Positions 22,958-36,269 are shown, counted from the first letter of the stretch. The stretch is DNA of 36,269 bases from Deltaproteobacteria bacterium (GCA_020060805.1 JAGUZM010000002.1:1-36269); one strand, 5' to 3'. Notes: generated from the sequence alone by a model not told the origin. Numbers and translations are program-made.

Positions 22958-23107
22958 TGGTTTTTAACAAACAGATATACAAAAAGTTAGCTATTAGCTA
23001 ATATCCATGGAGAATTTCAGCTGGTGGGGAACTCACGTTTGTGCTTCTTCGTCCAAAATTTCAAGTAATTCTATACCGATAGCGGTATCTTATAGTGGGA
23101 GGTCGGA

Positions 23108-24190
23108 ATGGCTTTAGGGAAGAAATTGATGAAGAAGAGGAAAGAGAGGAACCTAACGCAAGAGGCGCTGGCTAAAGAACTCGGCGTTACATCAGCGTAC
23201 ATCAGCCAAATTGAGAAAGCCCAACGAAATCCTTCTTATGGTCTTCTAATCAAGCTGGCACATGTACTGGATATCACAGTTGATTATTTGCTTGCATCGG
23301 AAGATTCTCTATCGAAGGAACCATCGCTGCGGTTCATAGATAACGCCCTCCGCTTCTTCAACTCCAAACAACGTTCTAGAGTTATTGACTATATTCATCA
23401 AATCTCAGGCACCAAGAGATACAAGCAATTTCCTATCCTGAACTCCGTTGAGGAGTATTCCTCATTCATAGTAAGTCATCTTAAGTACAACAAGATCCCG
23501 GTAGATCCTTTTGAAATCGCTGATCAACTTGGCATCGACGTTATACTCTCAAAAAAGGAATTGAAGCATGAGGCGATGCTGTTCAAGAGCACCGAGCGTC
23601 CTACTATCATATTGGATTCCAGCATCGGTAGTTCGGCTCGGCAGAGGTTCACTGTCGCAACAATGATCGGTCACTTGGTTATCCCATGGCACTTGCGGCC
23701 GGTTTTTGAGAGAGAGAAAGAGAGAAGGTCATTGGACTTAGAAGATCAGCTGGAAATAGAGGCAAGGAAGTTTGCCGGAGAACTCTTGATCCCATCGAGG
23801 TTGGTGTGGCGAGATTTTGAAGAACTGGATCCGGATCTCGAGACTTTCGAGAATATCGCATATGGGAAATATGGTTGTTCAATGTTGGCAATTGCACACA
23901 AGTACATTGAAAAATATGCAAAGACAGCAGTCCTGATTACTTCCCGAGAAGGAAAACCAACAAGGGTTTATAGCTCCGGTCTCCCATACACGCTTTTAGA
24001 AAAACCCCGTGAAGGTTCTCTTGTGCTCACCTTCATCTCCAAACCTCCAAGTGAAAAGGAATACAGGAAAGGGTTCGTGGAACCTAATTGCTGGGTACTC
24101 AACCCGCCAAGGAATCTAAAGGTGCACGAAGAGACTTTGTTGGATCCGAAAGAAGGAGTAGCGGTCTCCCTGCTTAGGTTCAGTACTTGA
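23108..24190 (+). CDS. XRE-family HTH regulator fused to an ImmA/IrrE-like (M78) domain with degenerate HExxH
   Basis: N-terminal LTQEALAKELGVTSAYISQIEKAQRNPS is an XRE HTH. The C-terminal RQRFTVATMIGHLVIPWH...EIEARKFAGELLIP matches the ImmA/IrrE pattern RFT-AHE-GH...E-EAN-FA-ELL-P. The first His and the Glu of the zinc motif are replaced by Thr-Met (23660-23674). Confidence 0.85.
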   Translation: MALGKKLMKKRKERNLTQEALAKELGVTSAYISQIEKAQRNPSYGLLIKLAHVLDITVDYLLASEDSLSKEPSLRFIDNALRFFNSKQRSRVIDYIHQISGTKRYKQFPILNSVEEYSSFIVSHLKYNKIPVDPFEIADQLGIDVILSKKELKHEAMLFKSTERPTIILDSSIGSSARQRFTVATMIGHLVIPWHLRPVFEREKERRSLDLEDQLEIEARKFAGELLIPSRLVWRDFEELDPDLETFENIAYGKYGCSMLAIAHKYIEKYAKTAVLITSREGKPTRVYSSGLPYTLLEKPREGSLVLTFISKPPSEKEYRKGFVEPNCWVLNPPRNLKVHEETLLDPKEGVAVSLLRFST

Positions 24191-24280
24191 GAGCGATCAC
24201 AATAAATTGAGGGAGAAGTCTTCAAGATAAATGAGGTTTGCGTGTGAAAATAGGGGACACAACTCTGAATATAGATAGAA

Positions 24281-24755
24281 GATGAACGAGTGAGCCGGGG
24301 GATCTACCGCCTCGCGGAACTGCCCCCGATCAGCAACCCCGACCTCGTTACCGTCGGCCTCCGCTTCCCGAGCGCGGTGGTCTGTCTCGTCTCCGCCCTG
24401 TCCTTTCATGAAATCACCACCCAGGTCCCCCACGAGGTCCATCGCAATGCCTAGAGGCACTCGCACGCCTTCGCTCGCCCACCCGCCCATCCGGGTCCAC
24501 CAATTCTCTGAGGCCGCGTACCGCTCCGGCATCGAGGAGCACCGGCTCGACGACGTGCCGATCAAGGTCTATAACCCAGAGAAGGCGCTCGCAAACTGCT
24601 TCAAGTTTCGAAACAAGATCGGGATGGACGTGGTGCTGGAGGCGCTGAGACTCTACAGGACCCGAAAGCGGTTCGACGTCGGCAAACTGCTCCATTACGC
24701 CAGGATCTGCCGGGTCGAACGGATCATGCGGCCCTACCTCGAGGGAGCGCTATGA
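24281..24755 (+). pseudogene. abiEi: AbiEi-family antitoxin gene, 5'-truncated and frameshifted
   Basis: Frame A reads ERVSRGIYRLAELPPISNPDLVTVGLRFPSAVVCLVSALSFHEITTQVPHEVH and then stops at 24452-24454. Frame B (24408..24755) continues IAMPRGTRTPSLAHPPIRVHQFSEAAYRSGIEE...VYNPEKALANCFKFRNKIG. The ~40 N-terminal wHTH codons are missing upstream of ~24275. Confidence 0.75.
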
Positions 24756-25548
24756 CCCCTCCAAAGAATCTTCCGATGTCCGTTCGCGATCGCCTCCTTG
24801 ACCGTGCGAGGAGTGACAAGCGGCCCTTCGGTGAACTCCTTCAGTATTTTGCGGTGGAACGGTTCCTCTACCGGCTTATGCAGAGCCGCCATGCCGAGCG
24901 TTTCGTGCTCAAGGGCGCACTGATGCTGAGGGTATGGCGGTCGCCGGAGCAGCGGCCGACCATGGACATCGACATGCTGGGGGAGACGAGCAAACCTGGA
25001 GGCTGGTCACCGAGGTTGAACCCGATGGGATCGTCTTCGATGCCTATTCCATTGAGGCCGAACGAATCACTGAAGACGCGGACTACGAGGGGATCAGAAT
25101 CCGTTTTCTGGGGCAGCTGGAGAGGGCGAGGATCCACATGCAGGTCGATATCGGATTTGGGGACGTGGCGTACCCCGAGCCTGCGAGAGCGGATTTCCCG
25201 GCCATGCTGGGTTTCCCCGCACCTCGACTGCTCTGTTACAGCCGTGAGAGCTCCATTGCCGAGAAACTGGAAGCCATGGTCAAACTGGGCGCCCTGAACA
25301 GCCGGATGAAGGATTTCTATGACCTCTGGGCACTATCTCGGCAGTTCGATTTCGATGGGGTCACGCCCACCGAGGCCGTCCGCCTGACCTTCGAACGAAG
25401 AGGTACGGGCTGTCTGCTGCGATTGAGGCCCGCCGAGTCATTCATCGAGTCGAAAGGAACACAGTGGACGGCCTTCAGAAAGATTGAAATACCCCCAGGG
25501 CTGGCTCGATCTTGGGGAAGGGGGGAGTTGAAGCTCCCTGCAGATTGA
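24752..25548 (+). pseudogene. abiEii: AbiEii/AbiGii-family nucleotidyltransferase toxin gene, frameshifted
   Basis: The ATG overlaps the abiEi stop (ATGA). The N-terminal part SVRDRLLDRAR...ERFLYRL...FVLKGALML...RPTMDIDMLG is in one frame. The remainder (EPDGIVFD...YEGIRIRF...QVDIGFGD...SRMKDFYDLW) is in another, with the switch and probable short deletion near 24985-25005. Confidence 0.75.
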
Positions 25549-25722
25549 TGCAGTGAGCTTCAATCTCTTGTTCGCCGCCGCCTTCGATAAAACCTGGAGG
25601 CTATCCCTCTGGAGTATGTCAGTCAAGCCCCATACCCGATAGTGGTCGAGAGGCGCAGGTCTCGAGGCTCCAGCGAGGTGCACACGGCATCGGCTGCTAA
25701 GACTTGTTCGTCCTGGTGGCTC

Positions 25723-25915
25723 CACAAACATGTCTTCCCAGCCTTTTCAACGCCTCCATGGAAAGAACGAGTATCCGGGAACAGGCATCGGTCTGGCCAT
25801 AGTCGAGAAGATCGTGGAGCGGCATGGAGGAGCGATCACCGCCAGGAGCACTCCTGAAAAGGGATCGACGTTTATCATCACACTGCCGGCGGTCGGAACC
25901 GAAAACAACAAGTGA
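25723..25915 (+). pseudogene. C-terminal remnant of a sensor histidine kinase (HATPase_c G2 box)
   Basis: The sequence is ...HKHVF / [50 protein letters not shown]. The F-box is split by a 1-nt frameshift near 25735. No H-box/DHp or sensor region exists upstream; only faint, multiply frameshifted traces run back to ~25545. Confidence 0.65.
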
Positions 25916-26243
25916 GCTTCAGTGAAGGATCCATTTCGCTGCCAACCCCTTCGTCTTTCTGTGACGATAAAACGGGGTCCTCAAAGGGATGCCGTGAAAG
26001 AACGGGCGCAGCCAACCAATGCGGGGATTAATTTAGGTTGAACCCATTCGTTTGGAGTTCGTTGACGGGCGTTCGGCAAGTGTGCTAATGGATACGACCA
26101 ATGCCCTCCCTTTTAGGGGATTGTCAACTGAGAGAATATCGGCATCTCGTCCACGCCCTGAGGGATGCTCATACCCCAGTGCGGGCAAGGCCGAATGCAG
26201 CCTTTCCCCCGCTCCGATATCGCCCGGCATTTGGAGAGGGTCC

Positions 26244-27887
26244 ATGCTTCCACGTCAGGACATTCCACACAAGACCGTCTCGGTCGGCATCCGGCCGGAG
26301 ATCTACGAGATCATCAACAGAGATCTCTCTCCGAGAGAGTTCCACCTTCAAAGGGCCGAGAATCTGATCGAACTTACCGGGATTCTCAAGCAAGGGGTCC
26401 CGGACGTCGTCTATATGGCTGCGGATCTAACTGCGTTCGATCCGTTTGTCCTCTCATCCAGACTGGCCAAGGCCGGCGTCGCGGTACTCATGATCTCGGA
26501 GGTCCCCACCCGGGACGTGCTCATCAATGCGGCTAGACATGGGGCCATGGATTTTCTGGTCAGCCCCCTTCAACCCTCTGTGGCCGTAATGAAAACAAAC
26601 CGGGCATTGATCAAGAAAGGCAAGAAGGCCCCTCTTGAGGGCCTGGAGAGGAAGATCGATTTCGGATCCGCCAAGACCCCTTACGAAAAAGTGAAGGTCG
26701 TCATCAAGAACATAAAGGAATTGCTCGCCCTTCCTTTCGCGGTGGTCAAGATCATCCGTCTCTGCAACGAGCCCAATGTTAATATCAAAGACCTTGAACT
26801 GGCGGTCAAATCCGACCCCGCTATCGCGGCCATGATCATGCGGCGCTCGAACTCCGCGATCTTCGGCAGTGCCGGGCAGGCCACGAGCATCCAGAGGGCC
26901 GTCTTCAGGATCGGAATGAGGGAAACCAGGAATATCGCCGCGTCCTTTTCCGTGTTTAAGCTCTTCACAAAAGAGGAAAAGAGCTTCGGGTTCAACCGGG
27001 TCTGGTTTTGGCTGCATTCCCTTACCGCCGGGATCTGCGCACAAATCCTAGCGACCATACTCAAACATCAGCAGCCCGAAGACGCGTTTCTGGCCGGACT
27101 TTTACATGACATTGGCAAGATGGTCCTGGATGATTTCATCAACGAGGAATTCGACAAGGCGATCCGCATGGCCAATACGGAAAGGATCCCCATGAGGATG
27201 GCCGAGAACTCCGTTTTTCAGACCACCCACTCCTATGTCGGGTCCAAGCTCGTCCAGATGTGGGGATTTCCCTCCGTAATTGCCGACGGCATCGGGCAAC
27301 ACCATCTCTATCAAAAACTCACCGAGACGAACAATGGTCTCTCGTTGGGCGCCATTGTGTGTATGGCGAACCAGATGTCCAAGGCAATGCAGGTCGGAAG
27401 CGGCGGGGACCATATAGCCGAACGAGAGCCCTCATTCCTTTGGAAGCGGGTTCCCAAGGATCTACCCTGGAGAAAAATCCTGGGGAAGGTCCTCGGCGAG
27501 CTCAATGCCTACACGGAGGTTCTGGAGATCCCACCGGAGCAATTCCGGATGGATCTGATCGAGTCCCAGAGGGGAAAGGTCGGTATATTCCTCCCGGGGA
27601 CAGACCATTTCGCGCCTCTTCTTCAGATCGCTCTCGAGCGTGAAGGTTTTGAGCCCGTTTTCTTGTCCTCACTAGAGAGCCGCAATTTCGAAGAAAAGCA
27701 GATGGCTCTCATCATAGGAGATCTCACCTCCGTACAGGACGGGGAAGAGGCGAGCAATCTCCAGAAGGGGATATCCTCCCTCCATGAGAAAAACATTATC
27801 CTTCCGCCAGCCGATAGAAAGAATACCCCCCTCCACCTGGATTTTTTCTGGCTGGAATCTCAGTTAAGGCACGTCCTGGGGCCATAA
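26244..27887 (+). CDS. HDOD-domain signalling protein flanked by receiver-like domains
   Basis: From track ORF 26052..27887. Start moved to ATG 26244 (GGAGAGGG upstream). HDOD signature LPFAVVKIIRLCNEPNVNIKDLELAVKSDPAIAAMIMRRSNSAIFG...GLLHDIGKMVL. The N- and C-terminal REC-like folds lack the usual acidic pocket. Confidence 0.8.
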   Translation: MLPRQDIPHKTVSVGIRPEIYEIINRDLSPREFHLQRAENLIELTGILKQGVPDVVYMAADLTAFDPFVLSSRLAKAGVAVLMISEVPTRDVLINAARHGAMDFLVSPLQPSVAVMKTNRALIKKGKKAPLEGLERKIDFGSAKTPYEKVKVVIKNIKELLALPFAVVKIIRLCNEPNVNIKDLELAVKSDPAIAAMIMRRSNSAIFGSAGQATSIQRAVFRIGMRETRNIAASFSVFKLFTKEEKSFGFNRVWFWLHSLTAGICAQILATILKHQQPEDAFLAGLLHDIGKMVLDDFINEEFDKAIRMANTERIPMRMAENSVFQTTHSYVGSKLVQMWGFPSVIADGIGQHHLYQKLTETNNGLSLGAIVCMANQMSKAMQVGSGGDHIAEREPSFLWKRVPKDLPWRKILGKVLGELNAYTEVLEIPPEQFRMDLIESQRGKVGIFLPGTDHFAPLLQIALEREGFEPVFLSSLESRNFEEKQMALIIGDLTSVQDGEEASNLQKGISSLHEKNIILPPADRKNTPLHLDFFWLESQLRHVLGP

Positions 27888-28034
27888 AGGACAAAACGGC
27901 AAACGCCGATCATTCGATCCAGCCGGCTATGCTACGGCGCTCGCCTTCAAGCCTCTCTTCTGTGAATAGTTCATTCCTGTGAGAAGCGCAGGTATTAGGG
28001 TCACCAGGCCCGCGAGGATTGACCTCGGTGCCAA

Positions 28035-28050
28035 AGGCATATTCCTTGCA
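28035..28050 (+). promoter_or_regulatory. candidate sigma54 (-24/-12) promoter AGGCAT-N5-TTGCA
   Basis: aGGCATattccTTGCA has the GG and GC dinucleotides at the canonical TGGCAC-N5-TTGC spacing. It lies ~80 bp upstream of the EAL-HDOD start. Confidence 0.3.
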
Positions 28051-28130
28051 TGCCTTTTGTTCCAGCAAAACGAAAAGTCCTATTACCCACGGCGATTTCT
28101 TACAGATCCTAAGATCGAGGGGAACCAACC

Positions 28131-29342
28131 ATGGACGTTTATGTGGGAAGACAGCCGATTTTCGGTAAGAACAAGAAAATTTTCGGATATGAGCTCCTTT
28201 TCAGAGACGGAATTTCCAACATGTTCCCTGGAACCGACGGTGAATCGGCCACCTCCAAGGTGCTGTCCAATTCCTTTCTCTCCATCGGCATCGAAGAGAT
28301 CACCGCCGGGGCAGCGGCTTTCGTCAATTTCCCCGAAGCATTGATCGTCAAAAAGATACCGCTCATGTTCTCCCCCCGGGTCTTGGTGGTCGAAGTTCTC
28401 GAAGATACCGGCCCCAGCGCCGATGTGGTTGAGGCATGCAGGGAGCTTTCCAGCCGCGGTTATCTGATAGCCCTGGATGACTTCTCTTACAGACCCGAGT
28501 ACCGGGTGCTCCTGCCGCATGTAAACATCGTCAAACTTGATTTCCGCGCCCAGGATCCGGACGCTCTGAGAGAGACCATGCAAGAATTAAAAGCCTTTCC
28601 CCTGAGTCTCCTGGCTGAGAAGGTGGAAACTCACAGTGAATTCCACGCCTCGCTGGATATGGGGTTTTCCTATTTCCAGGGGTATTTCTTCAGTAAGCCG
28701 GAAGTCCTCTGCGGAAAGGACATTTCCGTCCCCAGATTGAATCTTCTTAGAATCATGGCCGAGGCGAATAAGGAAGACTTCGAGTTCAACAAACTGGAGG
28801 AGATCATCACCCGGGAATTGGGGATCTCCTATAAGCTTCTGAGGTATGTGAATTCAGCCTACTTCAGGCGTCGAGAGAGCATCTCCTCCATCAAGCAGGC
28901 CATCGTGCTGCTGGGGGAGAGGCAGATCAGGCAGTTCGTTTCGCTCATTGCAATGTCCAACCTGGCCCAGGACAAGCCCGGTGAGTTGATTAGAATCTCG
29001 GTCGTCAGGGCGAAGTTTTGCGAGCTCGCAGGGAGCCGGGATGGAGGCAAAACAGATGTAGACGAGCTCTTCACGCTTGGGCTCTTCTCGCTAATCGACG
29101 CGGTCATGGACGATTCCATGGAAACCCTGATGGAGAAACTGCCCCTTTCAGACGATATCAAGAAGGCCCTGATCAGCGGCGAGGGAATCCTGAGCGATTA
29201 TCTGAAACTCGTGATCGGCTACGAGCGGGCTGATTGGGGAAATACGGCCCTCGCAGCCTCCAGGCTCGGCTTGAACGAAGAGAGTCTTCCCAGATGCTTT
29301 AAAGAGGCGCTGAGTTGGGCCAATTCATTCTCGGATCTCTGA
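28131..29342 (+). CDS. EAL + HDOD domain protein (COG3434-type c-di-GMP phosphodiesterase-like)
   Basis: MDVYVGRQPIFGKNKKIFGYELLFR is typical of this family. The EAL catalytic positions look conserved: ELL, FVNF, EVLE, ALDDF, VKLD, AEKVE, QGYFF. A C-terminal HDOD-like half follows (LRIMAEANKED...YKLLRYVNSAYF). Confidence 0.85.
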   Translation: MDVYVGRQPIFGKNKKIFGYELLFRDGISNMFPGTDGESATSKVLSNSFLSIGIEEITAGAAAFVNFPEALIVKKIPLMFSPRVLVVEVLEDTGPSADVVEACRELSSRGYLIALDDFSYRPEYRVLLPHVNIVKLDFRAQDPDALRETMQELKAFPLSLLAEKVETHSEFHASLDMGFSYFQGYFFSKPEVLCGKDISVPRLNLLRIMAEANKEDFEFNKLEEIITRELGISYKLLRYVNSAYFRRRESISSIKQAIVLLGERQIRQFVSLIAMSNLAQDKPGELIRISVVRAKFCELAGSRDGGKTDVDELFTLGLFSLIDAVMDDSMETLMEKLPLSDDIKKALISGEGILSDYLKLVIGYERADWGNTALAASRLGLNEESLPRCFKEALSWANSFSDL

Positions 29343-29347
29343 CCTCA

Positions 29348-29546
29348 TCCAAGAAGATACACAAGAAGAGAGGGTACGGCACGAGTCTGGGCGACAAGGG
29401 AGGGTTTGCCCTCCACCCTCAAGAGCAACGATGAGGCCTGCGAGGTCATCATCGAGACCAGGGAGGCCGCAGGCTACACCCCCGACCAAGAGCAGGCCGT
29501 CGACCTGGATCCAGCGGCCGGCTCCTTTCTGAAGATGGTACCTTGA
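29348..29546 (+). pseudogene. eno: internal fragment of an enolase gene (about 66 codons, frameshifted)
   Basis: SKKIHKKRGYGTSLGDKGGFA, then a frameshift, then STLKSNDEACEVIIETREAAGYTPDQEQAVDLDPAAGSFLK. This aligns residue by residue with the enolase segment LKKvLKekGy.TsVGDEGGFAPnLkSNeEAle.I.EAie.AGY.pG.d.alalD.AASEFyK. Both gene ends are absent. Weaker traces may run to ~29612. Confidence 0.7.
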
Positions 29547-29751
29547 CCTGCCTTCGGTGGCTTCCGTCCTTTTCGACCGCCTGTACACACCAATACGCCG
29601 CAAGGCCCGATAAGAGAATTCCTGGCCCATCCATTTTTCCTGTCACACCCTGCCACATCCTGCCCGCCTTCTTTGATTCCAAAACCGCTTGAGCTCTATC
29701 CTTGGACCCGCATGCTTGAGAAACACTCCAAGGCGGGAACCGGATCGGAGC

Positions 29752-30114
29752 ATGGCCATGAAAAGAAGGCGAATCATCAAGGACAGGTCGAGGATCCCGG
29801 GCATCTCCGTTGGTGAGGAAGTGGACACCAGCGTCGGGGAGAAGAAGAAGGTCTGCTTCAACATCAACGGAAGGTGGGTCTTCAGGATGGTCGATCCTGG
29901 ATGGAGGGCGCCTGGGAGACCACAAAAGGGCAGAGGGCGGAAGACAGATGTCGGAGATCGGAAGTCAGAAGCCAGAGGGCAGCCGCCGCCGCGCCGGAGT
30001 GGCGCTATGGCGCGCCACGTAGGCGGGAAGTCAGAGAGCAGAGATCGGAGAACAGGGACAAAGGGCTCGGGCACCAAGAAGGGTGCCAAGGCAAAGGAAG
30101 GAGACGGGGAATGA
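29752..30114 (+). CDS. hypothetical Arg/Lys-rich, low-complexity protein (120 aa), speculative
   Basis: ATG 29752 has GGAG 4 nt upstream, and the stop overlaps the C11 start (ATGA at 30111-30114). The first ~50 codons show the G/C third-position bias of neighbouring genes. The C-terminal half (RPQKGRGRKTDVGDRKSEARGQPPPRRSG...) is compositionally extreme, so coding status is uncertain. Confidence 0.35.
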   Translation: MAMKRRRIIKDRSRIPGISVGEEVDTSVGEKKKVCFNINGRWVFRMVDPGWRAPGRPQKGRGRKTDVGDRKSEARGQPPPRRSGAMARHVGGKSESRDRRTGTKGSGTKKGAKAKEGDGE

Positions 30115-31238
30115 AGGCGAAATGGACGGTGATGATCTACATGGCAGGGGATAACAATCTCGACTCCGCGGCGTTGGACGACATCGAGGAGCTGGCCCAG
30201 GTCGGCAGCTCCGCAAAGGTCAACGTCCTGGTGCAGCTGGATAGAGACGGCGACCTCCGGACCAGGCGATTTTGCATCAGCAAGGGCGGAGGGTACCGCA
30301 AGGATTGCATCGAGACCTTCGGGGAGACCAACACCGGGGACCCGAAGGTGCTTTCGGACTTCATCAACTGGGCCATCGAGAAATACCCGGCGGACCGCTA
30401 CTTCCTCATCCTCTGGAACCACGGGAGCGGCTGGTGGGACGAGCCCGACCGGGCCTTCAGGCTGATCAAGCGAAACATCGGTTACGACGACCACTCGGGC
30501 GGCGATTCCCTGGACAACCGGGAACTGAAAGACGTGCTCACGAAGATCTCCCAAGGTCTGGGGAAGCGGATAGAGCTGATCGGCATGGATGCCTGCCTCA
30601 TGACCATGGTGGAGGTGGCCTACCAGATCAGGGAGAGCGCCATGGTGATGGTGGGATCCGAGATCGAGGAACCCGGGGACGGCTGGCCTTACGACCAGGT
30701 CATCGGGATCCTCACGAAGAGCCCGGGCAGCGCCCCGGCTACCATGGCCCGAAAGATCGTGAGCGCCTACATCGCATGCTACCAGGGAGCCGGTGAGCCG
30801 GTCACGCAGTCGGCGCTCAACCTCGAGAAGATCGGGGATGTGGTGAAAGCGCTCGATCTCTTCTCGAAGGAGTTGATTGCCGCCCTTGATGGTAATGAAA
30901 GGGGTGCTCTCCTGAAGGCCATTGGTTCTGCGTGGGAGCGAAGCCCCAGGTTCTTCTATGACTGCTACGTGGACCTTTACCGGTTTACCAAGCTCCTGAG
31001 GGACCGCTTCTCAGGGGAGGGGGTCCGGAAGGCGGCGGAAGAGCTCCTCCTAGCACTCAGACCCGGGAGCAAGAAGGCGGTCCTTTGTCAGAAACACCTC
31101 GGGATAGGGGTCAGGAGCACCTACGGCCTCTCCGTCTACTTCCCCCTGTCGGAGATCAACCCGAAATACCGGACCCTGGATTTCTACCAGGACTGCGCGT
31201 GGGGGAGGTTCATCGAGAAATTCCTCTCCTGTGAGTGA
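30111..31238 (+). CDS. clostripain-like cysteine peptidase (family C11, clan CD), no signal peptide
   Basis: Start at ATG 30111 (AAGGAAGGAG upstream); the 79-codon upstream extension of the track ORF is rejected. KWTVMIYMAGDNNLD is the family N-terminus. Catalytic His in LILWNHGSGW (30420-30422) and catalytic Cys in IGMDACLM (30594-30596). Confidence 0.85.
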   Translation: MKAKWTVMIYMAGDNNLDSAALDDIEELAQVGSSAKVNVLVQLDRDGDLRTRRFCISKGGGYRKDCIETFGETNTGDPKVLSDFINWAIEKYPADRYFLILWNHGSGWWDEPDRAFRLIKRNIGYDDHSGGDSLDNRELKDVLTKISQGLGKRIELIGMDACLMTMVEVAYQIRESAMVMVGSEIEEPGDGWPYDQVIGILTKSPGSAPATMARKIVSAYIACYQGAGEPVTQSALNLEKIGDVVKALDLFSKELIAALDGNERGALLKAIGSAWERSPRFFYDCYVDLYRFTKLLRDRFSGEGVRKAAEELLLALRPGSKKAVLCQKHLGIGVRSTYGLSVYFPLSEINPKYRTLDFYQDCAWGRFIEKFLSCE

Positions 31239-31248
31239 GGGTCAAGCC

Positions 31249-31617
31249 ATGGAAAACCTGGAAGCCTGCATCATCGAGATCAAGAAGGCCATCGCCCGGA
31301 TCGAGGAGCAGACCAGGACCATCTTCAAGAACCTGGCGGAGTTCAAAGCCTCCTCCGAGAGGCTCCACGCAGAGCACTTCGATGCTGCCAACTCTCTCAG
31401 GAAAGAGGCATCGGAGATGTACCGGCACCTGGACGTGCGGGTTTCAAGGCATGGTGTGGACATCGTCGGCATCCAGCGAAGTCTTGCCAAGATGGAGAAG
31501 CTACTCCAGGAGATCGCCCAGGGCTCGGCCAGGACCCGGGGGATTGCGATGGGGTTGGGGATGGCAGGGGGAGCGGTTGTCTCCATCCTTACGCTCCTTG
31601 CCCAACTCATGAGGTGA
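31249..31617 (+). CDS. tail-anchored coiled-coil protein with C-terminal glycine-zipper transmembrane segment
   Basis: ATG 31249 (GAGGG upstream) lies 10 nt after the C11 stop. About 95 aa are heptad-like helical sequence, then GSARTRG, then GIAMGLGMAGGAVVSILTLLAQLMR at the extreme C-terminus. Confidence 0.6.
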   Translation: MENLEACIIEIKKAIARIEEQTRTIFKNLAEFKASSERLHAEHFDAANSLRKEASEMYRHLDVRVSRHGVDIVGIQRSLAKMEKLLQEIAQGSARTRGIAMGLGMAGGAVVSILTLLAQLMR

Positions 31618-31622
31618 GGAAG

Positions 31623-31645
31623 GTCCCCGGGAAGAATCCCGGGAC
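31623..31645 (+). other. GC hairpin GTCC(C)CGGG-AAGAAT-CCCGGGAC between the tail-anchored gene and the HU-like gene
   Basis: 8-bp stem with one bulged C, starting 6 nt after the stop at 31617. No U-tract follows, so a terminator role is doubtful. Confidence 0.3.
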
Positions 31646-31695
31646 TGACGAGACGTCCCAGAGAGGACGGCAACAGAGAAAGGAGGTGAAAGGAG

Positions 31696-32034
31696 ATGTC
31701 CAGCAGGCAGGAACTGATCGAGAAGTTCGCGAAGAAGGCCAATCTGCCCAAGAAGAATGCCGGGGCGTACCTCGGGATCATCCTCGAGGTGATTCAGCTC
31801 ATCCTGGCAAAGTCCGGCGAGCTGAAGCTCCCCGGGTTCGGGGCCTTCAAAGCCAAGGCGGTCCCGGAGAGGGAGGGAACCAACCCGCTGACCAAGCAGA
31901 AGGTCACCTTCTCGCCCGGTATCAGGGTGAGCTTCAAACCGGGCAGGCCCTTCAAGCAGGAGATGCTCGGGGGGAGCTTCGCGGCCAAGGCGGAGAAGGC
32001 CAAGGCAGGCAAGTCCGGGAAACGGAAGAAGTAA
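31696..32034 (+). CDS. HU/IHF-family DNA-binding protein with Lys-rich C-terminal tail
   Basis: Strong RBS AAAGGAGGTGAAAGGAG. LPGFGAFKAKAVPEREGTNPLTKQKVTFSPGIRVSFKPGRPFK matches the HU/IHF beta-arm pattern. An extra AKAEKAKAGKSGKRKK tail is present. Confidence 0.85.
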   Translation: MSSRQELIEKFAKKANLPKKNAGAYLGIILEVIQLILAKSGELKLPGFGAFKAKAVPEREGTNPLTKQKVTFSPGIRVSFKPGRPFKQEMLGGSFAAKAEKAKAGKSGKRKK

Positions 32035-32043
32035 ACCTCTTTC

Positions 32044-32074
32044 AGGGAGGAGGTTGGTCCCCAATCTCCTCCCT
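32044..32074 (+). terminator. possible intrinsic terminator after the HU-like gene
   Basis: AGGGAGGAG-N13-CTCCTCCCT forms a perfect 9-bp stem starting 10 nt after the stop. It is followed only by a short CCTTTC tract. Confidence 0.3.
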
Positions 32075-32096
32075 CCTTTCATGAGAAGATATTCCC

Positions 32097-32552
32097 ATGG
32101 AACCAACCCTCAATCTACTCTTCGCCCCTGAAGACAGGCTCATGGATTTACTCCAGAAGGAGTTCCTCTCCGCCCGGAAGACGATCGACATCGTCGTTTA
32201 TCTCCTGGGTTCGAAGACCGTCGCCAATGCGATCATCAAGGCACACCAGCGAGGGATCGCCATCCGGATGATCATCGACGGCAAGGTAGCGAGGACCAGG
32301 TATTCGGCGCACAAATCCTTGCTCAAGAAGGGCATCGATGTCAGGCCCCTTCGTGTCACCGGCGGCTCCATGCACACCAAGTTCACGCTGATCGACGGCA
32401 GCAAGGTGATCGCCGGAAGCGCCAACCTCACCAACGACGCCAATTATCGGAACCACGAATTCATGATCGTTTCGGAAGATCCTGCGATCACCGCGGGCTT
32501 CTCCTCCAAGTTCGAGTCTCTCTGGACCACGTTGAATAAACAGACGCCCTAG
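32097..32552 (+). CDS. phospholipase D-family single-HKD protein (Nuc-like nuclease/PLD fold), no signal peptide
   Basis: 151 aa with one HKD motif, GSMHTKFTLIDGSKVIAGSANLTNDA. Size and architecture resemble the dimeric Nuc endonuclease. The start is uncertain (32097 lacks an SD; ATG 32142 is possible). Confidence 0.8.
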   Translation: MEPTLNLLFAPEDRLMDLLQKEFLSARKTIDIVVYLLGSKTVANAIIKAHQRGIAIRMIIDGKVARTRYSAHKSLLKKGIDVRPLRVTGGSMHTKFTLIDGSKVIAGSANLTNDANYRNHEFMIVSEDPAITAGFSSKFESLWTTLNKQTP

Positions 32553-32613
32553 TCGGGGGAGAGAGGAAGGTAAGGAGAGAGGGGGGTTGGGGGGTGAGGG
32601 GTATATAAGGAAT

Positions 32614-32637
32614 TGATTCAATCAATTGATTGAATCA
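32614..32637. repeat. perfect 24-bp AT-rich palindrome TGATTCAATCAATTGATTGAATCA
   Basis: Verified base by base. It lies 14 nt upstream of the 32652 start and is followed by TTTTTT. It is preceded by a polypurine/G-run tract (32555-32601). Confidence 0.85.
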
Positions 32638-32651
32638 TTTTTTGAGGAAAA

Positions 32652-33701
32652 ATGCAGGCTGATATCCATTTTTATGGGGTTTATGCACTTGCCCGTGCTG
32701 CCGGAATTGACTCGAAAACGGCAAAAACAATCGCCTACGCCTCACAGTTCGTGGATGATGCCGTTGATGATGAAGCTATAATCCTCACCATTCAGAAGGC
32801 CTTCCTACCAACCATCACCAGCCACAAACCCATCGATTACGAGAATGCCATCCCCGGAGATCAATGGAGGGTGTGGATACCCTTCCACTTCCTTCCGGGG
32901 AACGACCCTGGATCAACCACCTTCATCGAGAGGATGGTCTGCCGAAAGGATAGCGATCCGGCCAGGAGGATGCTCAGACATGCACTCGATCCTTCGAACA
33001 GCGCTCTCTGGCCACACCTGATCGGCATTGCCGCCCATGTCTATGCGGATACCTTCTCCCATTTCGGGTTTGTCGGGATCGCCCATCCTTGGAACAAGGT
33101 GAAGGGCGACTCGATCGAGGCCTCGGAAGAACATTCACCATCAATCCTCGAGTACATCCAAAACAAGTTCGAGGACTTCAAGATGAGGTTTGCCGGCGGC
33201 TTTGCCGAGATGATCCCCGTCGGGCATGGATCGGTCGCGAGCTATCCCGATAGGCCCTACCTGAAGTGGCGATTCGAGTATGAGGATGGGAAGCACACTC
33301 AGGAGGAGATGGTTCGAGACAATGTGTTCCATTTCATGGATGGGTGCAGGGGACTCTATGGCTTCTTCCGGGACTTCTCCAGGATCTATTTCGATGGGCG
33401 CGATCTCGTCGGCCATCGGGCATGGAAGGATATCAAGGACCTGGTCGAGAGCATCCTCAGGCGAGAGGCCCCGCTGGATGAAAGGATCGGGGCATGGAAG
33501 GAGGCTATCTCAGCAGGGCATTTCTGCGAGGTCTCGGAGATCGATTGCGATATCAGCTATGACCCGGCTCTCTGGAGGCCCTGTGCGACGGGGGAGGCAT
33601 TCCCGGAGGAGTGCGACCCGCAACGATTCTTCATGGCCGCATGCTTTCACCGCAACTATGTCCTTCTGGATCTCCTCCCAGAGATAGGTCTTCTCTTGTG
33701 A
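32652..33701 (+). CDS. conserved-looking hypothetical protein, His-rich (possible zinc-dependent phospholipase C / P1-nuclease-like fold)
   Basis: 349 aa with SD GAGGA. The N-terminal MQADIHFYGVYALARAAG...ASQFVDD and the central GIAAHVYADTFSHFGF recall metal-ligand patterns of that superfamily. This is an impression only and the family is not identified. No signal peptide. Confidence 0.7.
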   Translation: MQADIHFYGVYALARAAGIDSKTAKTIAYASQFVDDAVDDEAIILTIQKAFLPTITSHKPIDYENAIPGDQWRVWIPFHFLPGNDPGSTTFIERMVCRKDSDPARRMLRHALDPSNSALWPHLIGIAAHVYADTFSHFGFVGIAHPWNKVKGDSIEASEEHSPSILEYIQNKFEDFKMRFAGGFAEMIPVGHGSVASYPDRPYLKWRFEYEDGKHTQEEMVRDNVFHFMDGCRGLYGFFRDFSRIYFDGRDLVGHRAWKDIKDLVESILRREAPLDERIGAWKEAISAGHFCEVSEIDCDISYDPALWRPCATGEAFPEECDPQRFFMAACFHRNYVLLDLLPEIGLLL

Positions 33702-33896
33702 CAGGCCGATGAAAAGAATCCATCTGCGGCGTTACCCTTATCCTTCGTCACTGCGACGTACTTCAAATGTACGACTCGTTCCTCAGGATTTCGGAAGCCT
33801 TGCATCTGAACCCTCTTGATCGGCCTGTAAATGAGCATGTTCGGGACCGGCTGGAGGCAGATTGTCAGCATCGCATGTATCGGGAGGATTCTGAAA

Positions 33897-34394
33897 ATGG
33901 CATCGAGAAAGATCGAGGATCTTCATGAGAGCGTCAGGAGCAAGGCGGAGGCCTTCCTTCGTGAATGTGGAGAGAGAGGCATTGCCATCCTGATCACATG
34001 CACCTTGCGAAGCATGGAGGAACAGGCGGCACTCTATGCTCAGGGAAGGGAGGAGGTTACAAAGGTCAACGAACTGAGAAGGCTCGCAGGGATGCCGCCC
34101 CTGGGGCCTGAGAACAGGATTGTTACCAACGCAAGGCCTGGATATTCTCTTCACAACTTCGGGCTGGCCTTTGACGTAGTGCCCCTCGATGGAGGAAAGC
34201 CCATATGGAATTCATCCCATCCCGTCTGGCAGCGGATAGGGAATAACGGGAAAGGCGTCGGACTCGAATGGGCCGGAGAGTGGAAGAGGTTCAGGGAGTA
34301 TCCCCATTTTCAGTACACATGCGGCCTTACCCTTGCCGAGATCCGAGAAGGGAAAAGGCCTGTGATCGAAACCGTACCTGTGGGGCTGTCATGA
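33897..34394 (+). CDS. M15-family peptidoglycan peptidase (VanY / L-alanyl-D-glutamate peptidase-like, endolysin-type)
   Basis: Start ATG 33897 (GGGAGGA upstream). Zinc ligands lie in GYSLHNFGLAFD and EYPHFQY. No signal peptide. Confidence 0.85.
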   Translation: MASRKIEDLHESVRSKAEAFLRECGERGIAILITCTLRSMEEQAALYAQGREEVTKVNELRRLAGMPPLGPENRIVTNARPGYSLHNFGLAFDVVPLDGGKPIWNSSHPVWQRIGNNGKGVGLEWAGEWKRFREYPHFQYTCGLTLAEIREGKRPVIETVPVGLS

Positions 34395-35416
34395 TAATCA
34401 ATTGCCATTGCCACATCTTCAGCCTGGAGTATGTTCCGAAGGGGTTCAGGAATCGATTCCTCCTGGACACTCGGAACCCCCTACATCGACTCATCCACCG
34501 GCTGCTCAGGACCATTCTCCCCGATGGGTCCAGCCTCGAGAACTTTCTTGATTTCGCCGGCCTTGCCATTTCCGAGATCTCAGAGACATTGGTCAAGGAG
34601 ATGGACCAGGCAGGGATCGAATTGTGTACACCCCTCATGATGGACATGGAATTTTGCGAACCATTCGGCGGTCAGGTGAAGTGCTTCGAAGATCAGATCT
34701 CGGAGACGATTGAAGCCGTCGAGGCGATGAACAGGAAGAGCGGCCGGCCGCGTATGCTGCCCTTCATCGCCGCCGATCCTCGGAGGAAGGATGTGGTAGA
34801 CATTGTGATCGGTGCACTTCAAGGAGGAGCATTCAAAGGTGTGAAGATCTACCCGGTTATGGGATTCACACCGGATGACCGGAGACTATATCCCATTTAC
34901 GATTATTGCATGAGAAACGAGATCCCCGTCACCACGCATTGCGAGAACGGAGGTGTCCCCGGGCTTGACGATTATTACCACCTGGCCCACCCGGGTTATT
35001 GGAAGACCGTTATATCGGATTTCCCAGAGCTGAAGCTGAACCTCGCCCACAACGACCGGACTGGGAACTCGTGGCAGCCGGTGATCACAGACTTGATCAT
35101 GATGTACCCCAACGTCTACACGGATATTTCCTACGACAGGGAGATGTTCTACAAGCCCGCGAGATATTTCAAGAGCATCAAGACGATGCTGAACACTCCC
35201 AAGCTCCAGGAAAGAGTTCTTTATGGAACGGACTGGTACATGGGAAGGTATCTCTGGACGGAAGCCTCCTACCTCAACTGGTTCACCGCATACTCCAGGA
35301 AGATCCCGTGGTGCCGCATCGAATTCACCGAGGACGAGATAAGAAGACTGACGGAAGAGAACCCCAGGTCCTTCCTGGGCATGAACCGAATCAAAGCGAC
35401 CTGTCGGAGGCATTGA
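34391..35416 (+). CDS. amidohydrolase-superfamily (TIM-barrel metal-dependent hydrolase) protein
   Basis: ATG 34391 overlaps the M15 stop (ATGA). MIINCHCHIF carries the HxH metal motif. Further ligand-like motifs are VTTHC, NLAHND and YGTDWY. Confidence 0.8.
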   Translation: MIINCHCHIFSLEYVPKGFRNRFLLDTRNPLHRLIHRLLRTILPDGSSLENFLDFAGLAISEISETLVKEMDQAGIELCTPLMMDMEFCEPFGGQVKCFEDQISETIEAVEAMNRKSGRPRMLPFIAADPRRKDVVDIVIGALQGGAFKGVKIYPVMGFTPDDRRLYPIYDYCMRNEIPVTTHCENGGVPGLDDYYHLAHPGYWKTVISDFPELKLNLAHNDRTGNSWQPVITDLIMMYPNVYTDISYDREMFYKPARYFKSIKTMLNTPKLQERVLYGTDWYMGRYLWTEASYLNWFTAYSRKIPWCRIEFTEDEIRRLTEENPRSFLGMNRIKATCRRH

Positions 35417-35560
35417 AGAGACCTCGGAAGATGACCCCGACCTTTCCTATTCACCCCGGCCTGACCCCTCCATTCACAGCCTGCCTGAGCATCAATTCTG
35501 ATAGAAAAACCCCAGCGAGAAGCCTTTCCAATTTCAGATCCCGGACAGGAGAAGAGGATG

Positions 35561-35719
35561 GCCGCCCCCTGGACGGGTGCGGCTTTGCTCATGGCAGGCC
35601 TGGTGGGTAGGGCAAGACCCTGGACGGGTCTTGCTGATCAGCCCTGAGGGAGTCGGGTCTGGACGGCCCTCCTTGCGGTACCGCATCGATCGTGCTGCAG
35701 GTCCGGTCTGGACGACCGG
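35561..35719 (+). repeat. array of four hairpins sharing a TGGAC pentaloop (REP-like)
   Basis: H1 35561-35583 gccgccccc/tggac/gggtgcggc. H2 35612-35634 gcaagaccc/tggac/gggtcttgc. H3 35655-35669 gggtc/tggac/ggccc. H4 35703-35719 ccggtc/tggac/gaccgg. Confidence 0.6.
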
Positions 35720-35829
35720 CCCTTGAACAGCCTTGGTGGGTTCCACGAGATATGTGGTTTGGCTGAGGAAGCAGGCTTCAATCTATCTTACATGTATTGA
35801 GCCTTTAGGTGAGCCTGCTTACTATCCTG

Positions 35830-35857
35830 CCCCCGCCCCCCCGCCCCCCCGCCCCCC
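35830..35857 (+). repeat. C5-G-C7-G-C7-G-C6 simple repeat (G-quadruplex/i-motif capable)
   Basis: Read directly: cccccgcccccccgcccccccgcccccc. Confidence 0.9.
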
Positions 35858-36173
35858 TGGTTCCATGCTGTGTGCTTCCTGGACCGTGCCGTCACAGTTT
35901 TTGCAGTTCCAGATTCATCGTCGTCCAACGAAATAGAGTCATGGTGAGTGCTATCTCCCTCATTCCATCAATGCCAGGCAAAAACTGCGCCGGCACTCCG
36001 CCCTGCTCGACCCCACGTCCTTCTTACTGACAACGCTCTTTCCACCACCAATAGAAGGACCCGCCCACCCACCCTTAAAGGAAGGACTTTTAGCCCCTCT
36101 CAACAACGCTTTCCATTGTCCCTCCATAAAGGGAGCAACTCAAGGTAGTAGGGCTAAGAGCTGCGAGGTGCCC

Positions 36174-36218
36174 CCAAAAAAGATCACTGCACCATATTCT
36201 AAAGGAGATCTTTTTTGG
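36174..36218. repeat. perfect 12-bp inverted repeat CCAAAAAAGATC ... GATCTTTTTTGG with a 21-nt spacer
   Basis: Arms at 36174-36185 and 36207-36218, verified base by base. Confidence 0.8.
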
Positions 36219-36269
36219 CTCCCCCACGCATCTCTAAGCCCTCTCCACCTTGACTTGCCCCCTTTATTC

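Follow-up and report, generated by a model that had tools for sequence, protein, structure and literature searches.

The eight genes at positions 29752-35416 of a 36,269-nucleotide (nt) stretch of DNA from a Deltaproteobacteria bacterium (GCA_020060805.1 JAGUZM010000002.1:1-36269; this whole stretch is "the window" in what follows) belong to one copy of an accessory module of ~6.1 kb, self-contained and not previously described, which recurs in syntroph and sulfate-reducer genomes of the Thermodesulfobacteriota. Its core consists of a protease of family C11, a tail-anchored coiled-coil protein, an HU-like DNA-binding protein and a small PLD-family protein. The composition of the module and its genomic context suggest protease-linked regulated self-destruction, either as abortive infection or as another form of programmed lysis; this is the reading that we favor, tentatively and in the knowledge that it may well be wrong.

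All eight genes of the window are intact and lie on the + strand, as judged by listing of open reading frames (ORFs), inspection of start sites and ribosome-binding sites, and residue mapping. They are, in order: o1 (29752-30114), which encodes a small basic protein outside any Pfam family; C11 (30111-31238; Peptidase_C11, PF03415, 201 bits, E 5e-59); o3 (31249-31617), which encodes the tail-anchored protein and also has no Pfam family; HU (31696-32034; Bac_DNA_binding, PF00216, 71 bits, E 1e-19); PLD (32097-32552; PLDc_2, 98 bits, E 4e-28); DUF6765 (32652-33701; PF20551, 270 bits, E 5e-80); M15 (33897-34394; Peptidase_M15_4/VanY in Pfam); and an amidohydrolase (34391-35416; Amidohydro_2, PF04909, E 1e-16). 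The start of M15 is set at 33897 rather than at 33831 because of a GGGAGG ribosome-binding site. Successive genes are separated by -4, 10, 78, 62, 99, 195 and -4 nt, the negative values being ATGA overlaps at 30111-30114 (o1/C11) and 34391-34394 (M15/amidohydrolase). A preliminary description made from the sequence alone had reported eight co-oriented genes with gaps of 0-195 bp and two such overlaps, and the recomputed layout matches it exactly; its domain calls (C11, HU-like, Nuc-like PLD, M15, amidohydrolase) are all matched by Pfam, and its claim that no protein of the cluster carries a signal peptide agrees with a Kyte-Doolittle scan (not SignalP), in which a signal-like hydrophobic N-terminus is absent from all eight. 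The sole transmembrane (TM)-grade segment that a hydropathy scan finds among them is residues 99-117 of o3. None of the eight proteins passes a curated NCBIfam cut-off. In comparison with three related loci (L097, L006 and L002; loci are designated throughout by L numbers), dN/dS is 0.1-0.35 for each gene of the cluster: all eight are under purifying selection.

Do these genes travel together elsewhere? Loci were taken from a genome collection and from assemblies, and their genes were called by a codon-score model and then clustered; gene counts come from profile searches of six-frame translations at most 11 kb from C11 and on the same strand. Among 30 non-redundant loci (C11 at least 44% identical, with at least 3 kb of downstream sequence), 27 have HU, 24 have PLD and 21 have a tail-anchored coiled-coil protein; C11 is truncated in each of the three that lack HU. 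The other counts are: MBL-fold hydrolase, 14/30; metallophosphoesterase, 13/30; SLT, 10/30; B12-radical-SAM, 9/30; DUF6765, 4/30; amidohydrolase and DprA-like, 3/30 each; M15 and patatin, 2/30 each. It is on these counts that C11, the tail-anchored protein, HU and PLD are taken as the core; M15, DUF6765 and the amidohydrolase are accessory, and o1 is confined to a small subclade. The earlier proposal that eight genes form one module has to be trimmed accordingly: the unit is real, and its gene order is kept in dozens of loci, which disposes of a lack of synteny elsewhere, named earlier as a ground for refuting it; but only these four genes are its core. Likewise, of the co-occurrence that had been suggested as a check, the part concerning C11, the tail-anchored protein and PLD stands, while o1 drops out as a subclade feature and M15 as a rarity. 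C11 homologues that are 31-40% identical (from Chlorobi, Acidobacteria, Verrucomicrobia and others) have no HU or PLD nearby. The full eight-gene set, with its order kept, recurs in a Desulfobacteraceae metagenome-assembled genome (MAG; L096/L097); amino acid identity to the window is 75-93% for the proteins from C11 to the amidohydrolase and 53% for the portion of o1 that aligns.

The accessory genes vary by type. In the window-type arm they are DUF6765, sometimes M15, and then the amidohydrolase (also found in L002, L096/L097, L104 and L105); in the Syntrophales-type arm they are MBL, metallophosphoesterase and radical-SAM genes, sometimes with a CFA synthase, and across variants the pair MBL/metallophosphoesterase takes turns with the pair DUF6765/amidohydrolase. 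Syntrophales-type modules have another single-TM protein, F4, in the position of o3; a signal-less SLT gene is directly adjacent to it, and the HU proteins of this type have long Lys/Ala/Pro tails. The Smithella type has, in addition, a patatin, a DprA-like gene and three HU paralogues, of which some are 448-626 amino acids long. Its variants are represented by L038:11143-12771, L035:13421-15945 and L036:16294-19442: patatin and SLT are fused in one 542-residue protein in L038, and the HU-domain genes stand three in tandem, some being extended at the N-terminus by 300-470 amino acids that lack a recognizable domain. Several MAGs carry 2-5 copies of the module each (UBA6112 five, WY2.bin112 three, others two or three), which are 70-88% identical in amino acid sequence within a MAG and stand in unrelated flanks. 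Decayed copies are frequent: C11 is truncated in L001, L098 and L085, PLD is split in L002 and L107, DUF6765 is split in L006, and in L090 an IS110 element lies between HU and PLD.

The module comes with borders of its own. In blastn comparisons with seven relatives, homology begins at 29626-29636 every time, and the upstream genes are all different. Three tandem ~10-nt repeats, CCTGTCACAC / CCTGCCACAT / CCTGCCCGCC, form a block at 29639-29668 (+ strand) that is nearly identical in seven loci, including L002, the C11 protein of which is 57% identical; the block is a candidate operator. Next to it lies a putative sigma-70 promoter (29673-29702, + strand; -35 TTGATT, 18-nt spacer, -10 TATCCT), which conservation alone suggests: the hexamer positions are invariant alignment columns, and a consensus promoter scan did not list the site (8/12 matches to consensus). 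At the other end is a non-coding tail of ~160 nt (35560-35719, + strand) with four hairpins (35560-35583, 35612-35634, 35655-35669 and 35703-35719), the stems of which differ while the loop, (C)UGGAC(G), is common to all; their spacing is ~40-50 nt. This tail is 80-83% identical to its counterparts in L002 (15198-15367) and L006 (14599-14860), as against 66-76% (L002) and 76-81% (L006) for coding DNA; another counterpart is found in L097 (15858-16060), and the tail is restricted to the 3' end of o1-type modules. It was considered as a known RNA family and rejected as such, there being no Rfam match at the gathering threshold or at E<=10. Single-sequence folding gives ordinary z-scores (-0.7 and -1.6); the covariation test drew on seven sequences, and at one stem position three loci have C.U, A-U and C-G. 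GGA sits in the loops of the four hairpins on the + strand only, which is reminiscent of the CsrA/Rsm-sponge RNAs of the CsrB/RsmZ type. The shared left start and the conserved tail together delimit a unit of ~6.1 kb (~29632 to 35719) with its own control regions.

Inside the unit, between PLD and DUF6765, lies a perfect, AT-rich palindrome of 24 nt (32614-32637, TGATTCAATCAATTGATTGAATCA), which is followed by a T-run; L097 has it as well, L006 has a degenerate form of it and L002 lacks it. The TGAG.GGTATATA (TATATA) box just 5' of it (~32595-32610) is invariant in the window and in all three of these loci; further 5' there is a G-rich tract. The palindrome is a possible weak terminator or operator, and palindrome and box together may split a core transcript from an accessory one with a second promoter.

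Several small repeats lie in or beside copies of the module. An insert of ~105-160 nt resembling a miniature inverted-repeat transposable element (MITE), with left end CCTGCCCGCCAATGCCTTA and right end GTGGTTTGGCTA.GGCAGGCGGG, sits exactly inside tail hairpin loops at CTG^GAC, so that these loops seem to be insertion targets; it is found in hairpins 3 and 4 of L105 (reverse strand, ~570-470, and further copies) and in hairpin 4 of L104 (2107-2155) and L106 (800-905). The 10-mer CCTGCCCGCC is common to this insert and to the left border of the module, and positions 35749-35764 of the window are similar to the right end of the insert. The gap between DUF6765 and M15 contains ~126 nt (33702-33827) that are 71% identical to an inverted copy, L099:9712-9836, just 5' of the module there, the equivalent place in L097 being without it; this is possibly another small repeat element. 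A C-rich tract, CCCCCGCCCCCCCGCCCCCCCGCCCCCC, at 35826-35858 coincides with the contig ends of L096 and L097, and at the end of the window (36126-36267) nested inverted repeats (21 nt, 90% complementary; 36 nt, 81% complementary) make up a hairpin of ~140 nt: a repeat element, or else an artefact of assembly.

The protease is the most readily classified of the proteins. Its match to PF03415 spans profile positions 1-357 of 359 and, with 201 bits, exceeds the cut-off of 25.8; the catalytic His104 (codon 30420-30422) and Cys162 (30594-30596), together with Asp160 of the S1 pocket (30588-30590), are invariant across 23 C11 homologues; the intact His/Cys dyad and the Cys codon had been placed correctly in the preliminary description. 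A profile search finds 6n9j, 6mzo, clostripain (9cip) and PmC11 (3uws/4yec) as its relatives in the PDB, and identity to solved C11 structures is low (E 1e-29 or weaker even with a profile query); the clostripain equivalog TIGR02806 is not reached (score 80.6, cut-off 550). The protein begins directly at the first beta-strand of the fold and is, for that reason, taken to lack a signal peptide. PmC11 is autoprocessed at Lys147, in the loop after the catalytic His, and the Asp two residues before its catalytic Cys lines an acidic S1 pocket, with a preference for basic P1 residues (PMC4850288). PNT1, a trypanosome C11 and thus a eukaryotic one, which acts on the organellar nucleoid, keeps Asp at Cys-2 and the basic P1 preference (PMC4850289). 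The presence of this Asp in the window protein therefore predicts Arg/Lys specificity. Arg121 (30471-30473) is also invariant; it ends a variable R/K/S-rich insertion in the loop after the catalytic His and is a candidate autoprocessing site. The subfamily comprises 2600 proteins at E<=1e-10, the best 120 clusters of which are ~370-450 amino acids long, lack signal peptides and come nearly all from Syntrophales, Desulfobacterales and unclassified "Deltaproteobacteria" MAGs. No close relatives were found in 2.9 million viral contigs (IMG/VR), 50,697 phage records (INPHARED) or 72,556 plasmids (PLSDB), where the best matches are 26-33% identical and stand in unrelated contexts. Literature searches yielded no report linking Peptidase_C11 with defence or clostripain with anti-phage activity, and no description of a C11-HU-PLD neighborhood.

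The two proteins encoded on either side of the protease are small. O1 is a genuine protein of a tiny, lineage-restricted family (28 representative clusters among 1.84 billion proteins); in every locus where it occurs it lies directly 5' of C11 and is always translationally coupled to it. It has an isoelectric point of 11.4 and 27.5% Lys plus Arg, and consists of a conserved beta core of ~47 amino acids (SRIPG..VGE.V.TS.GEKKKVCFNI.G.WFFRMVDP.WRAPGRP) between variable, disordered, basic tails; an alignment of 22 homologues has 24 invariant columns, and an AlphaFold2 (AF2) model places a three-stranded sheet at residues 21-45 (pLDDT 82-86). Membership in some larger known family was considered and rejected, there being no Pfam, PHROG, NCBIfam or PADLOC match, and its best Foldseek match, a Sac7d-derived chromatin-protein scaffold, is not significant (E 0.7). 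O3 has a helical/coiled-coil cytoplasmic part of ~95 amino acids that leads into a C-terminal Gly-zipper TM helix (residues 99-117, 31543-31599; 19-residue Kyte-Doolittle maximum 2.04), as the earlier call of a tail-anchored coiled-coil protein would have it. A juxtamembrane [RK]T[RK]G motif precedes the helix, and the family alignment keeps ARTRGIA.GLGMAGGA. None of the holin families of Pfam or PHROG is matched by o3, for which phrog_5211 (function unassigned) is the sole match, at E 0.002. Homology between the o3 family (F8) and F4, which has its size and architecture in common with o3, was considered and rejected (hhalign probability 0.1).

HU scores 71 bits against a PF00216 cut-off of 22.4, has the NPLT motif with its beta-arm Pro, and ends in a Lys-rich tail, AAKAEKAKAGKSGKRKK; it falls under every HU-alpha, HU-beta and IHF equivalog cut-off of NCBIfam, and is therefore a divergent paralogue. 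A survey of the HU superfamily (PMC5499826) makes no mention of C11 or PLD neighborhoods. The PLD protein (~150 amino acids) has one HKD motif, HxK(x)4D(x)6GSxN, present as MHTKFTLIDGSKVIAGSANLT, with His93 at 32373-32375 and Lys95 at 32379-32381. Its best PDB matches are MitoPLD/Zucchini (2.5e-15), Nuc (1byr, 5e-9) and NucT, and its NCBIfam matches all lie far under their cut-offs. Sequence comparison assigns it to the Nuc/NucT/Zucchini nuclease clade, in which nuclease and lipase are indistinguishable by sequence.

Three accessory genes complete the window copy. The ORF earlier characterized as a His-rich unknown belongs to Pfam family DUF6765, the invariant residues of which include M1, D4, H6, H58, H79, H129, D133, H137, H192 and D200. 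An AF2 model is all-alpha (pLDDT 85, pTM 0.89), and the protein is a putative His/Asp-rich metallohydrolase. The accompanying guess that it might be PLC- or P1-nuclease-like finds no support: there is no significant PDB match by fold or by sequence, the top Foldseek match, C. perfringens alpha-toxin, has only E 1.3 and TM 0.21, and hhalign gives a probability of 0.25 for the DUF6765 profile against one PF00882 protein. One DUF6765 homologue (P0192) bears a precomputed PF00882 match. Outside the module, DUF6765 genes stand alone or adjoin Lipase_3. Examples are L102/L103:7051-9071 and protein P0216: DUF6765 lies directly 3' of a Lipase_3 gene in DNA rich in mobile elements, and one homologue originates from the fosmid pFosLip. 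These associations are hints of a lipid-related activity; literature searches found nothing published on DUF6765. M15 has intact zinc ligands (His86, Asp93 and His137), its closest PDB matches are Ply500 (2vo9, 4e-18) and LysB4 (1e-14), and it matches PHROG endolysin families at 5e-31; by these similarities it is classed as an M15C endolysin-type L-alanyl-D-glutamate peptidase. It is intact only in the window: the sole other copy seen (L096/L097) is interrupted by an insert of ~105 nt (L097:14423-14525; also in L096) immediately 5' of the codon for the third zinc ligand, and is probably inactive. The amidohydrolase, a metal hydrolase by family and translationally coupled to M15, has an N-terminal HxH (His6, His8).

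In what company is the module found? The three nearest upstream genes were compared between 49 module loci (130 proteins) and 32 loci of distant C11 homologues (89 proteins), with 25 families listed for each set; the loci are not phylogenetically independent. The commonest Pfam families beside the module are AbiEii (10 proteins), variants of AbiEi (5, 3, 3 and 2), HTH_17 (4), UvrD helicase, Fic, HEPN and MNT-type nucleotidyltransferases (3 each), and BrnT, DUF433, PIN and IstB (2 each); none of them is among the 25 families listed for the control loci, where permeases and CN-hydrolases lead. PADLOC finds AbiEii (7), AbiEi (6), SoFic (4) and GajB-like (3) in the module flanks, and scattered single matches in the controls. 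Individual flanks hold MmeI/Eco57I restriction genes (L002), a methylase (N6_Mtase)-PIN-SMC-ATPase cluster (L096), a helicase/HSP70 cluster with PIN/DUF433 pairs (L098) and ThsB-TIR (L107); past these defence-type neighbors come ordinary housekeeping genes. The impression of a defence-island-like context, first gained from the window, is thus borne out by the AbiE, Fic, HEPN-MNT, BrnT, PIN and restriction genes that recur beside copies elsewhere. In contrast, across more than 40 loci the module has no conserved neighbor that is an integrase, relaxase, type IV secretion system (T4SS), capsid, tail or terminase gene. It had also been considered that the region might extend into a prophage: neither the window nor any of the more than 40 related loci contains structural or packaging genes, and a prophage or plain lysis cassette is accordingly rejected, there being no close viral, phage or plasmid homologues either. 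Nor is the module a tRNA/tmRNA-targeting island, this adjacency being found in only 1-3 of 45 loci: a tmRNA gene lies directly upstream in one (L005) and a tRNA near the module in at most two more. In L005 (Syntrophaceae PtaB.Bin095), smpB closely precedes the tmRNA gene (L005:9317-9670), and C11 follows 330 bp downstream. The GC content of the module is higher than that of most flanks, yet equal to that of the housekeeping flanks in L086, and is ambiguous with regard to foreign origin.

In the window, the genes upstream of the module are an XRE-M78 regulator (23108-24190), a truncated AbiEi and an AbiEii split across two frames (24408-25548), two HDOD signalling genes between these and the cluster, and a fragment of enolase (29298-29528) that has a frame break and matches residues ~175-248 of the 429-residue protein. 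The decayed AbiE genes, the XRE/ImmA-like regulator and the enolase scar to the left of the cluster had all been noted before. The end of the EAL-HDOD gene overlaps with this fragment; L005 has an intact enolase gene, 2.3 kb upstream from its module copy and on the opposite strand. The window has a compositional break: GC content is 0.478 in positions 1-23000, where GC skew is strongly negative and metabolic genes, ETF among them, lie on the - strand, and 0.54-0.57 in positions 23001-36269, which hold the XRE-M78, AbiE and HDOD genes and the module.

What might a C11 protease do in such company? The scheme that we tentatively favor is one of protease-licensed self-destruction. In the resting cell C11 would be an inactive zymogen. 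A trigger would set off its autoprocessing in the basic loop after His104, with Arg121 as the candidate site, and the active protease could then cleave basic partners: the K/R-rich tails of o1 and HU, or o3 at its [RK]T[RK]G site. Cleavage would release a holin-like membrane lesion; the signal-less wall hydrolase (M15 here, SLT elsewhere) would meet peptidoglycan, and the nuclease and metallohydrolases would meet their own substrates. The steps of this scheme are all inferred, and so are its trigger, the proteins cleaved and whatever effect it may have on phage. The candidate for the switch is the caspase-fold protease; the candidate substrates, to go by their basic sequences, are o1, the tail of HU and o3 at its juxtamembrane [RK]T[RK]G site. 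Analogous hydrolases are swapped at the same position (SLT or M15, patatin, MBL, metallophosphoesterase), which fits a set of effectors; as effector targets, the wall (SLT/M15), the membrane (patatin) and nucleic acid (PLD) would fit, and perhaps also the membrane for DUF6765 and nucleic acid for MBL/metallophosphoesterase. A signal-less endolysin-type enzyme together with a single-TM protein fits a self-destructive output, and the diverged copies, the frequent decay and the flanks rich in toxin-antitoxin (TA) and restriction genes fit what is seen of conflict systems. One can go further and imagine the module as the founding example of a new anti-phage or programmed-death family of Thermodesulfobacteriota, in which C11 is restrained by, or monitors, the HU paralogue or o1, so that perturbation of these proteins (for example by phage DNA or phage anti-HU factors) would license o3 and the swappable hydrolases, with the GGA-loop tail adding control at the RNA level. 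This elaboration is the more doubtful proposition, and we consider it unlikely as it stands.

Several things weigh against regulated self-destruction. No sensor or NTPase component is recognizable in the module, and none of its proteins is a homologue of a validated defence protein except for a domain-level match of PLD in PADLOC. The B12-radical-SAM protein, the amidohydrolase and the CFA synthase of some loci suit a killing device poorly. Some copies (L086, for example) lie between housekeeping genes and have a host-like GC content. O3 has no homology to known holins and in the window is not adjacent to M15. The enrichment in the flanks may just reflect the gathering of module and TA genes in variable regions. 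The evidence for multiple copies comes from MAGs, in which bins can be mixed, though orthologous loci of co-binned strains would share flanks.

Three other explanations draw on much the same observations. The module could come from a mobile element (an integrative and conjugative element, a cryptic prophage or a genomic islet) as its lysis and maintenance cassette, now domesticated or in decay, with HU, the nuclease, the wall hydrolase and the membrane protein as its establishment and lysis genes and the protease as a maturation enzyme. Plasmids are known to carry Nuc-type PLD nucleases and HU-like proteins (Nuc of pKM101 and Phu of pCAR1 are examples), and a tmRNA gene, such as the one from which the L005 module lies 330 bp downstream, is a classic island integration site. 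The L002 module is followed by DprA-like, SSB and ArdC genes, DprA-like genes also lie 3' of PLD in L035 and L036, M15 and HU match PHROG families, and insertion sequences (IS) and MITE-like insertions lie within copies and beside them. Against such an origin, more than 40 loci show no conserved integration, transfer or virion genes beside the module, the viral, phage and plasmid collections yield no close C11 relative, tRNA or tmRNA adjacency is limited to 1-3 of 45 loci, and purifying selection acts on all eight genes; we regard this origin as rather improbable. If, on the other hand, the module were an ordinary chromosomal operon of these anaerobes for the turnover of envelope, lipid or nucleic acid, its hydrolases would serve metabolism and its proximity to TA genes would be incidental. 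Copies between aspS/gatAB and dnaJ/groESL, the B12-radical-SAM and occasional CFA synthase genes of the Syntrophales type, the pairing of DUF6765 with Lipase_3 elsewhere, its homologue from a lipolytic fosmid and a module GC content like that of the core genome in several loci are what such an operon might show; a patchy, multi-copy distribution with flanks that are never the same, frequent decay, the replacement of enzymes by others of different fold at one position, and an endolysin-type peptidase without a cytoplasmic substrate are not, and make this quite unlikely.

The remaining explanation, to which we assign an equally small probability, is remodelling of nucleoid and envelope for dormancy or resuscitation: HU, with its Lys tail, and o1 would compact DNA, C11 would remove them on exit, and the hydrolases would remodel the envelope. 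GPR does something of the kind when it removes small acid-soluble proteins (SASPs) in germinating spores. The module does place two small, very basic, putatively nucleic-acid-binding proteins beside a protease with predicted basic P1 specificity, and the Lys/Ala/Pro HU tails of the Syntrophales type, the three HU paralogues of the Smithella type, the Sac7d-derived scaffold as best, if non-significant (E 0.7), fold match of o1, and the action of PNT1 on an organellar nucleoid (PMC4850289) can be read in the same sense. But o1 is missing from most modules and its DNA binding is only putative; multiple diverged copies, pseudogenes and TA-rich flanks would be unusual for a developmental pathway; and a reversible program does not sit easily with a nuclease and a patatin lipase.

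To return to regulated self-destruction: how does the module compare with systems already described? In PADLOC-DB v2.0.0, seven of the eight proteins have no match and PLD matches the DrmC, MkoC, ZacB and DpdK models at domain level only; no full signature set is found, in keeping with the earlier statement that the gene set is that of no named defence system. The gasdermin operons and the CHAT/Craspase type of defence are alike in joining a clan CD protease, a small membrane-active candidate and degradative proteins in one operon, in their TA- and defence-rich surroundings, and in the proposed logic of proteolytic licensing of death. They differ in the protease, which here is of family C11 rather than C14 or CHAT; in having gasdermins, models of which are matched by no protein of the cluster in Pfam and PADLOC profile searches; in having an attached CRISPR, STAND, TPR or SAVED sensor, which the module lacks; and in that HU and a PLD nuclease are not known there as fixed partners. 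Holin-endolysin cassettes also combine a signal-less peptidoglycan hydrolase with a small single-TM protein, encoded by adjacent genes as in the Syntrophales type; the module, however, has no phage context, its o3 is tail-anchored with a cytoplasmic coiled coil of ~95 amino acids, unlike holin families, four genes separate o3 from M15 in the window, and the wall hydrolase is dispensable, being absent or broken in L002, L006 and L097.

Its individual components have more familiar relatives. With PmC11, clostripain and PNT1 the protease has in common its fold, the His/Cys dyad, Asp at Cys-2 and a basic residue in the post-His loop; like PNT1 it is intracellular and linked with DNA-organizing proteins, whereas clostripain and the C11 proteases of gut Bacteroidales are secreted and the module subfamily has no signal peptide. 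PLD resembles Nuc, NucT and Zucchini, and DrmC of DISARM, in its ~150 amino acids, its one HKD motif and, presumably, its homodimeric state; it differs from the exported Nuc and NucT in lacking a signal peptide, and from the DISARM setting in that DrmA, DrmB and the methylase are absent near the module. AbiE, a type IV TA and abortive infection system, is the commonest immediate neighbor, with a decayed copy 4 kb upstream in the window. It is a separate two-gene system of several subtypes, usually divergently transcribed, and is counted as a neighbor rather than a component because it is not present at every copy of the module.

Clan CD proteases drive cell death widely: caspases in animals, metacaspases in plants and fungi, gasdermin-activating and CRISPR-linked proteases in bacteria. 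To our knowledge, family C11 has so far been represented only by secreted clostripain-like enzymes and by one organellar enzyme of trypanosomes. The module is best filed among protease-associated death or defence modules, as one built on a protease family not earlier implicated in them. It offers several leads: three candidate substrates, an orphan DUF6765 with a confident model and no structural relative, and a conserved structured element at the 3' end. If regulated self-destruction is its function, protease-controlled death and defence would extend to a new protease family, C11, and would take in the syntrophs and sulfate reducers, ecologically important bacteria with almost no characterized immunity.

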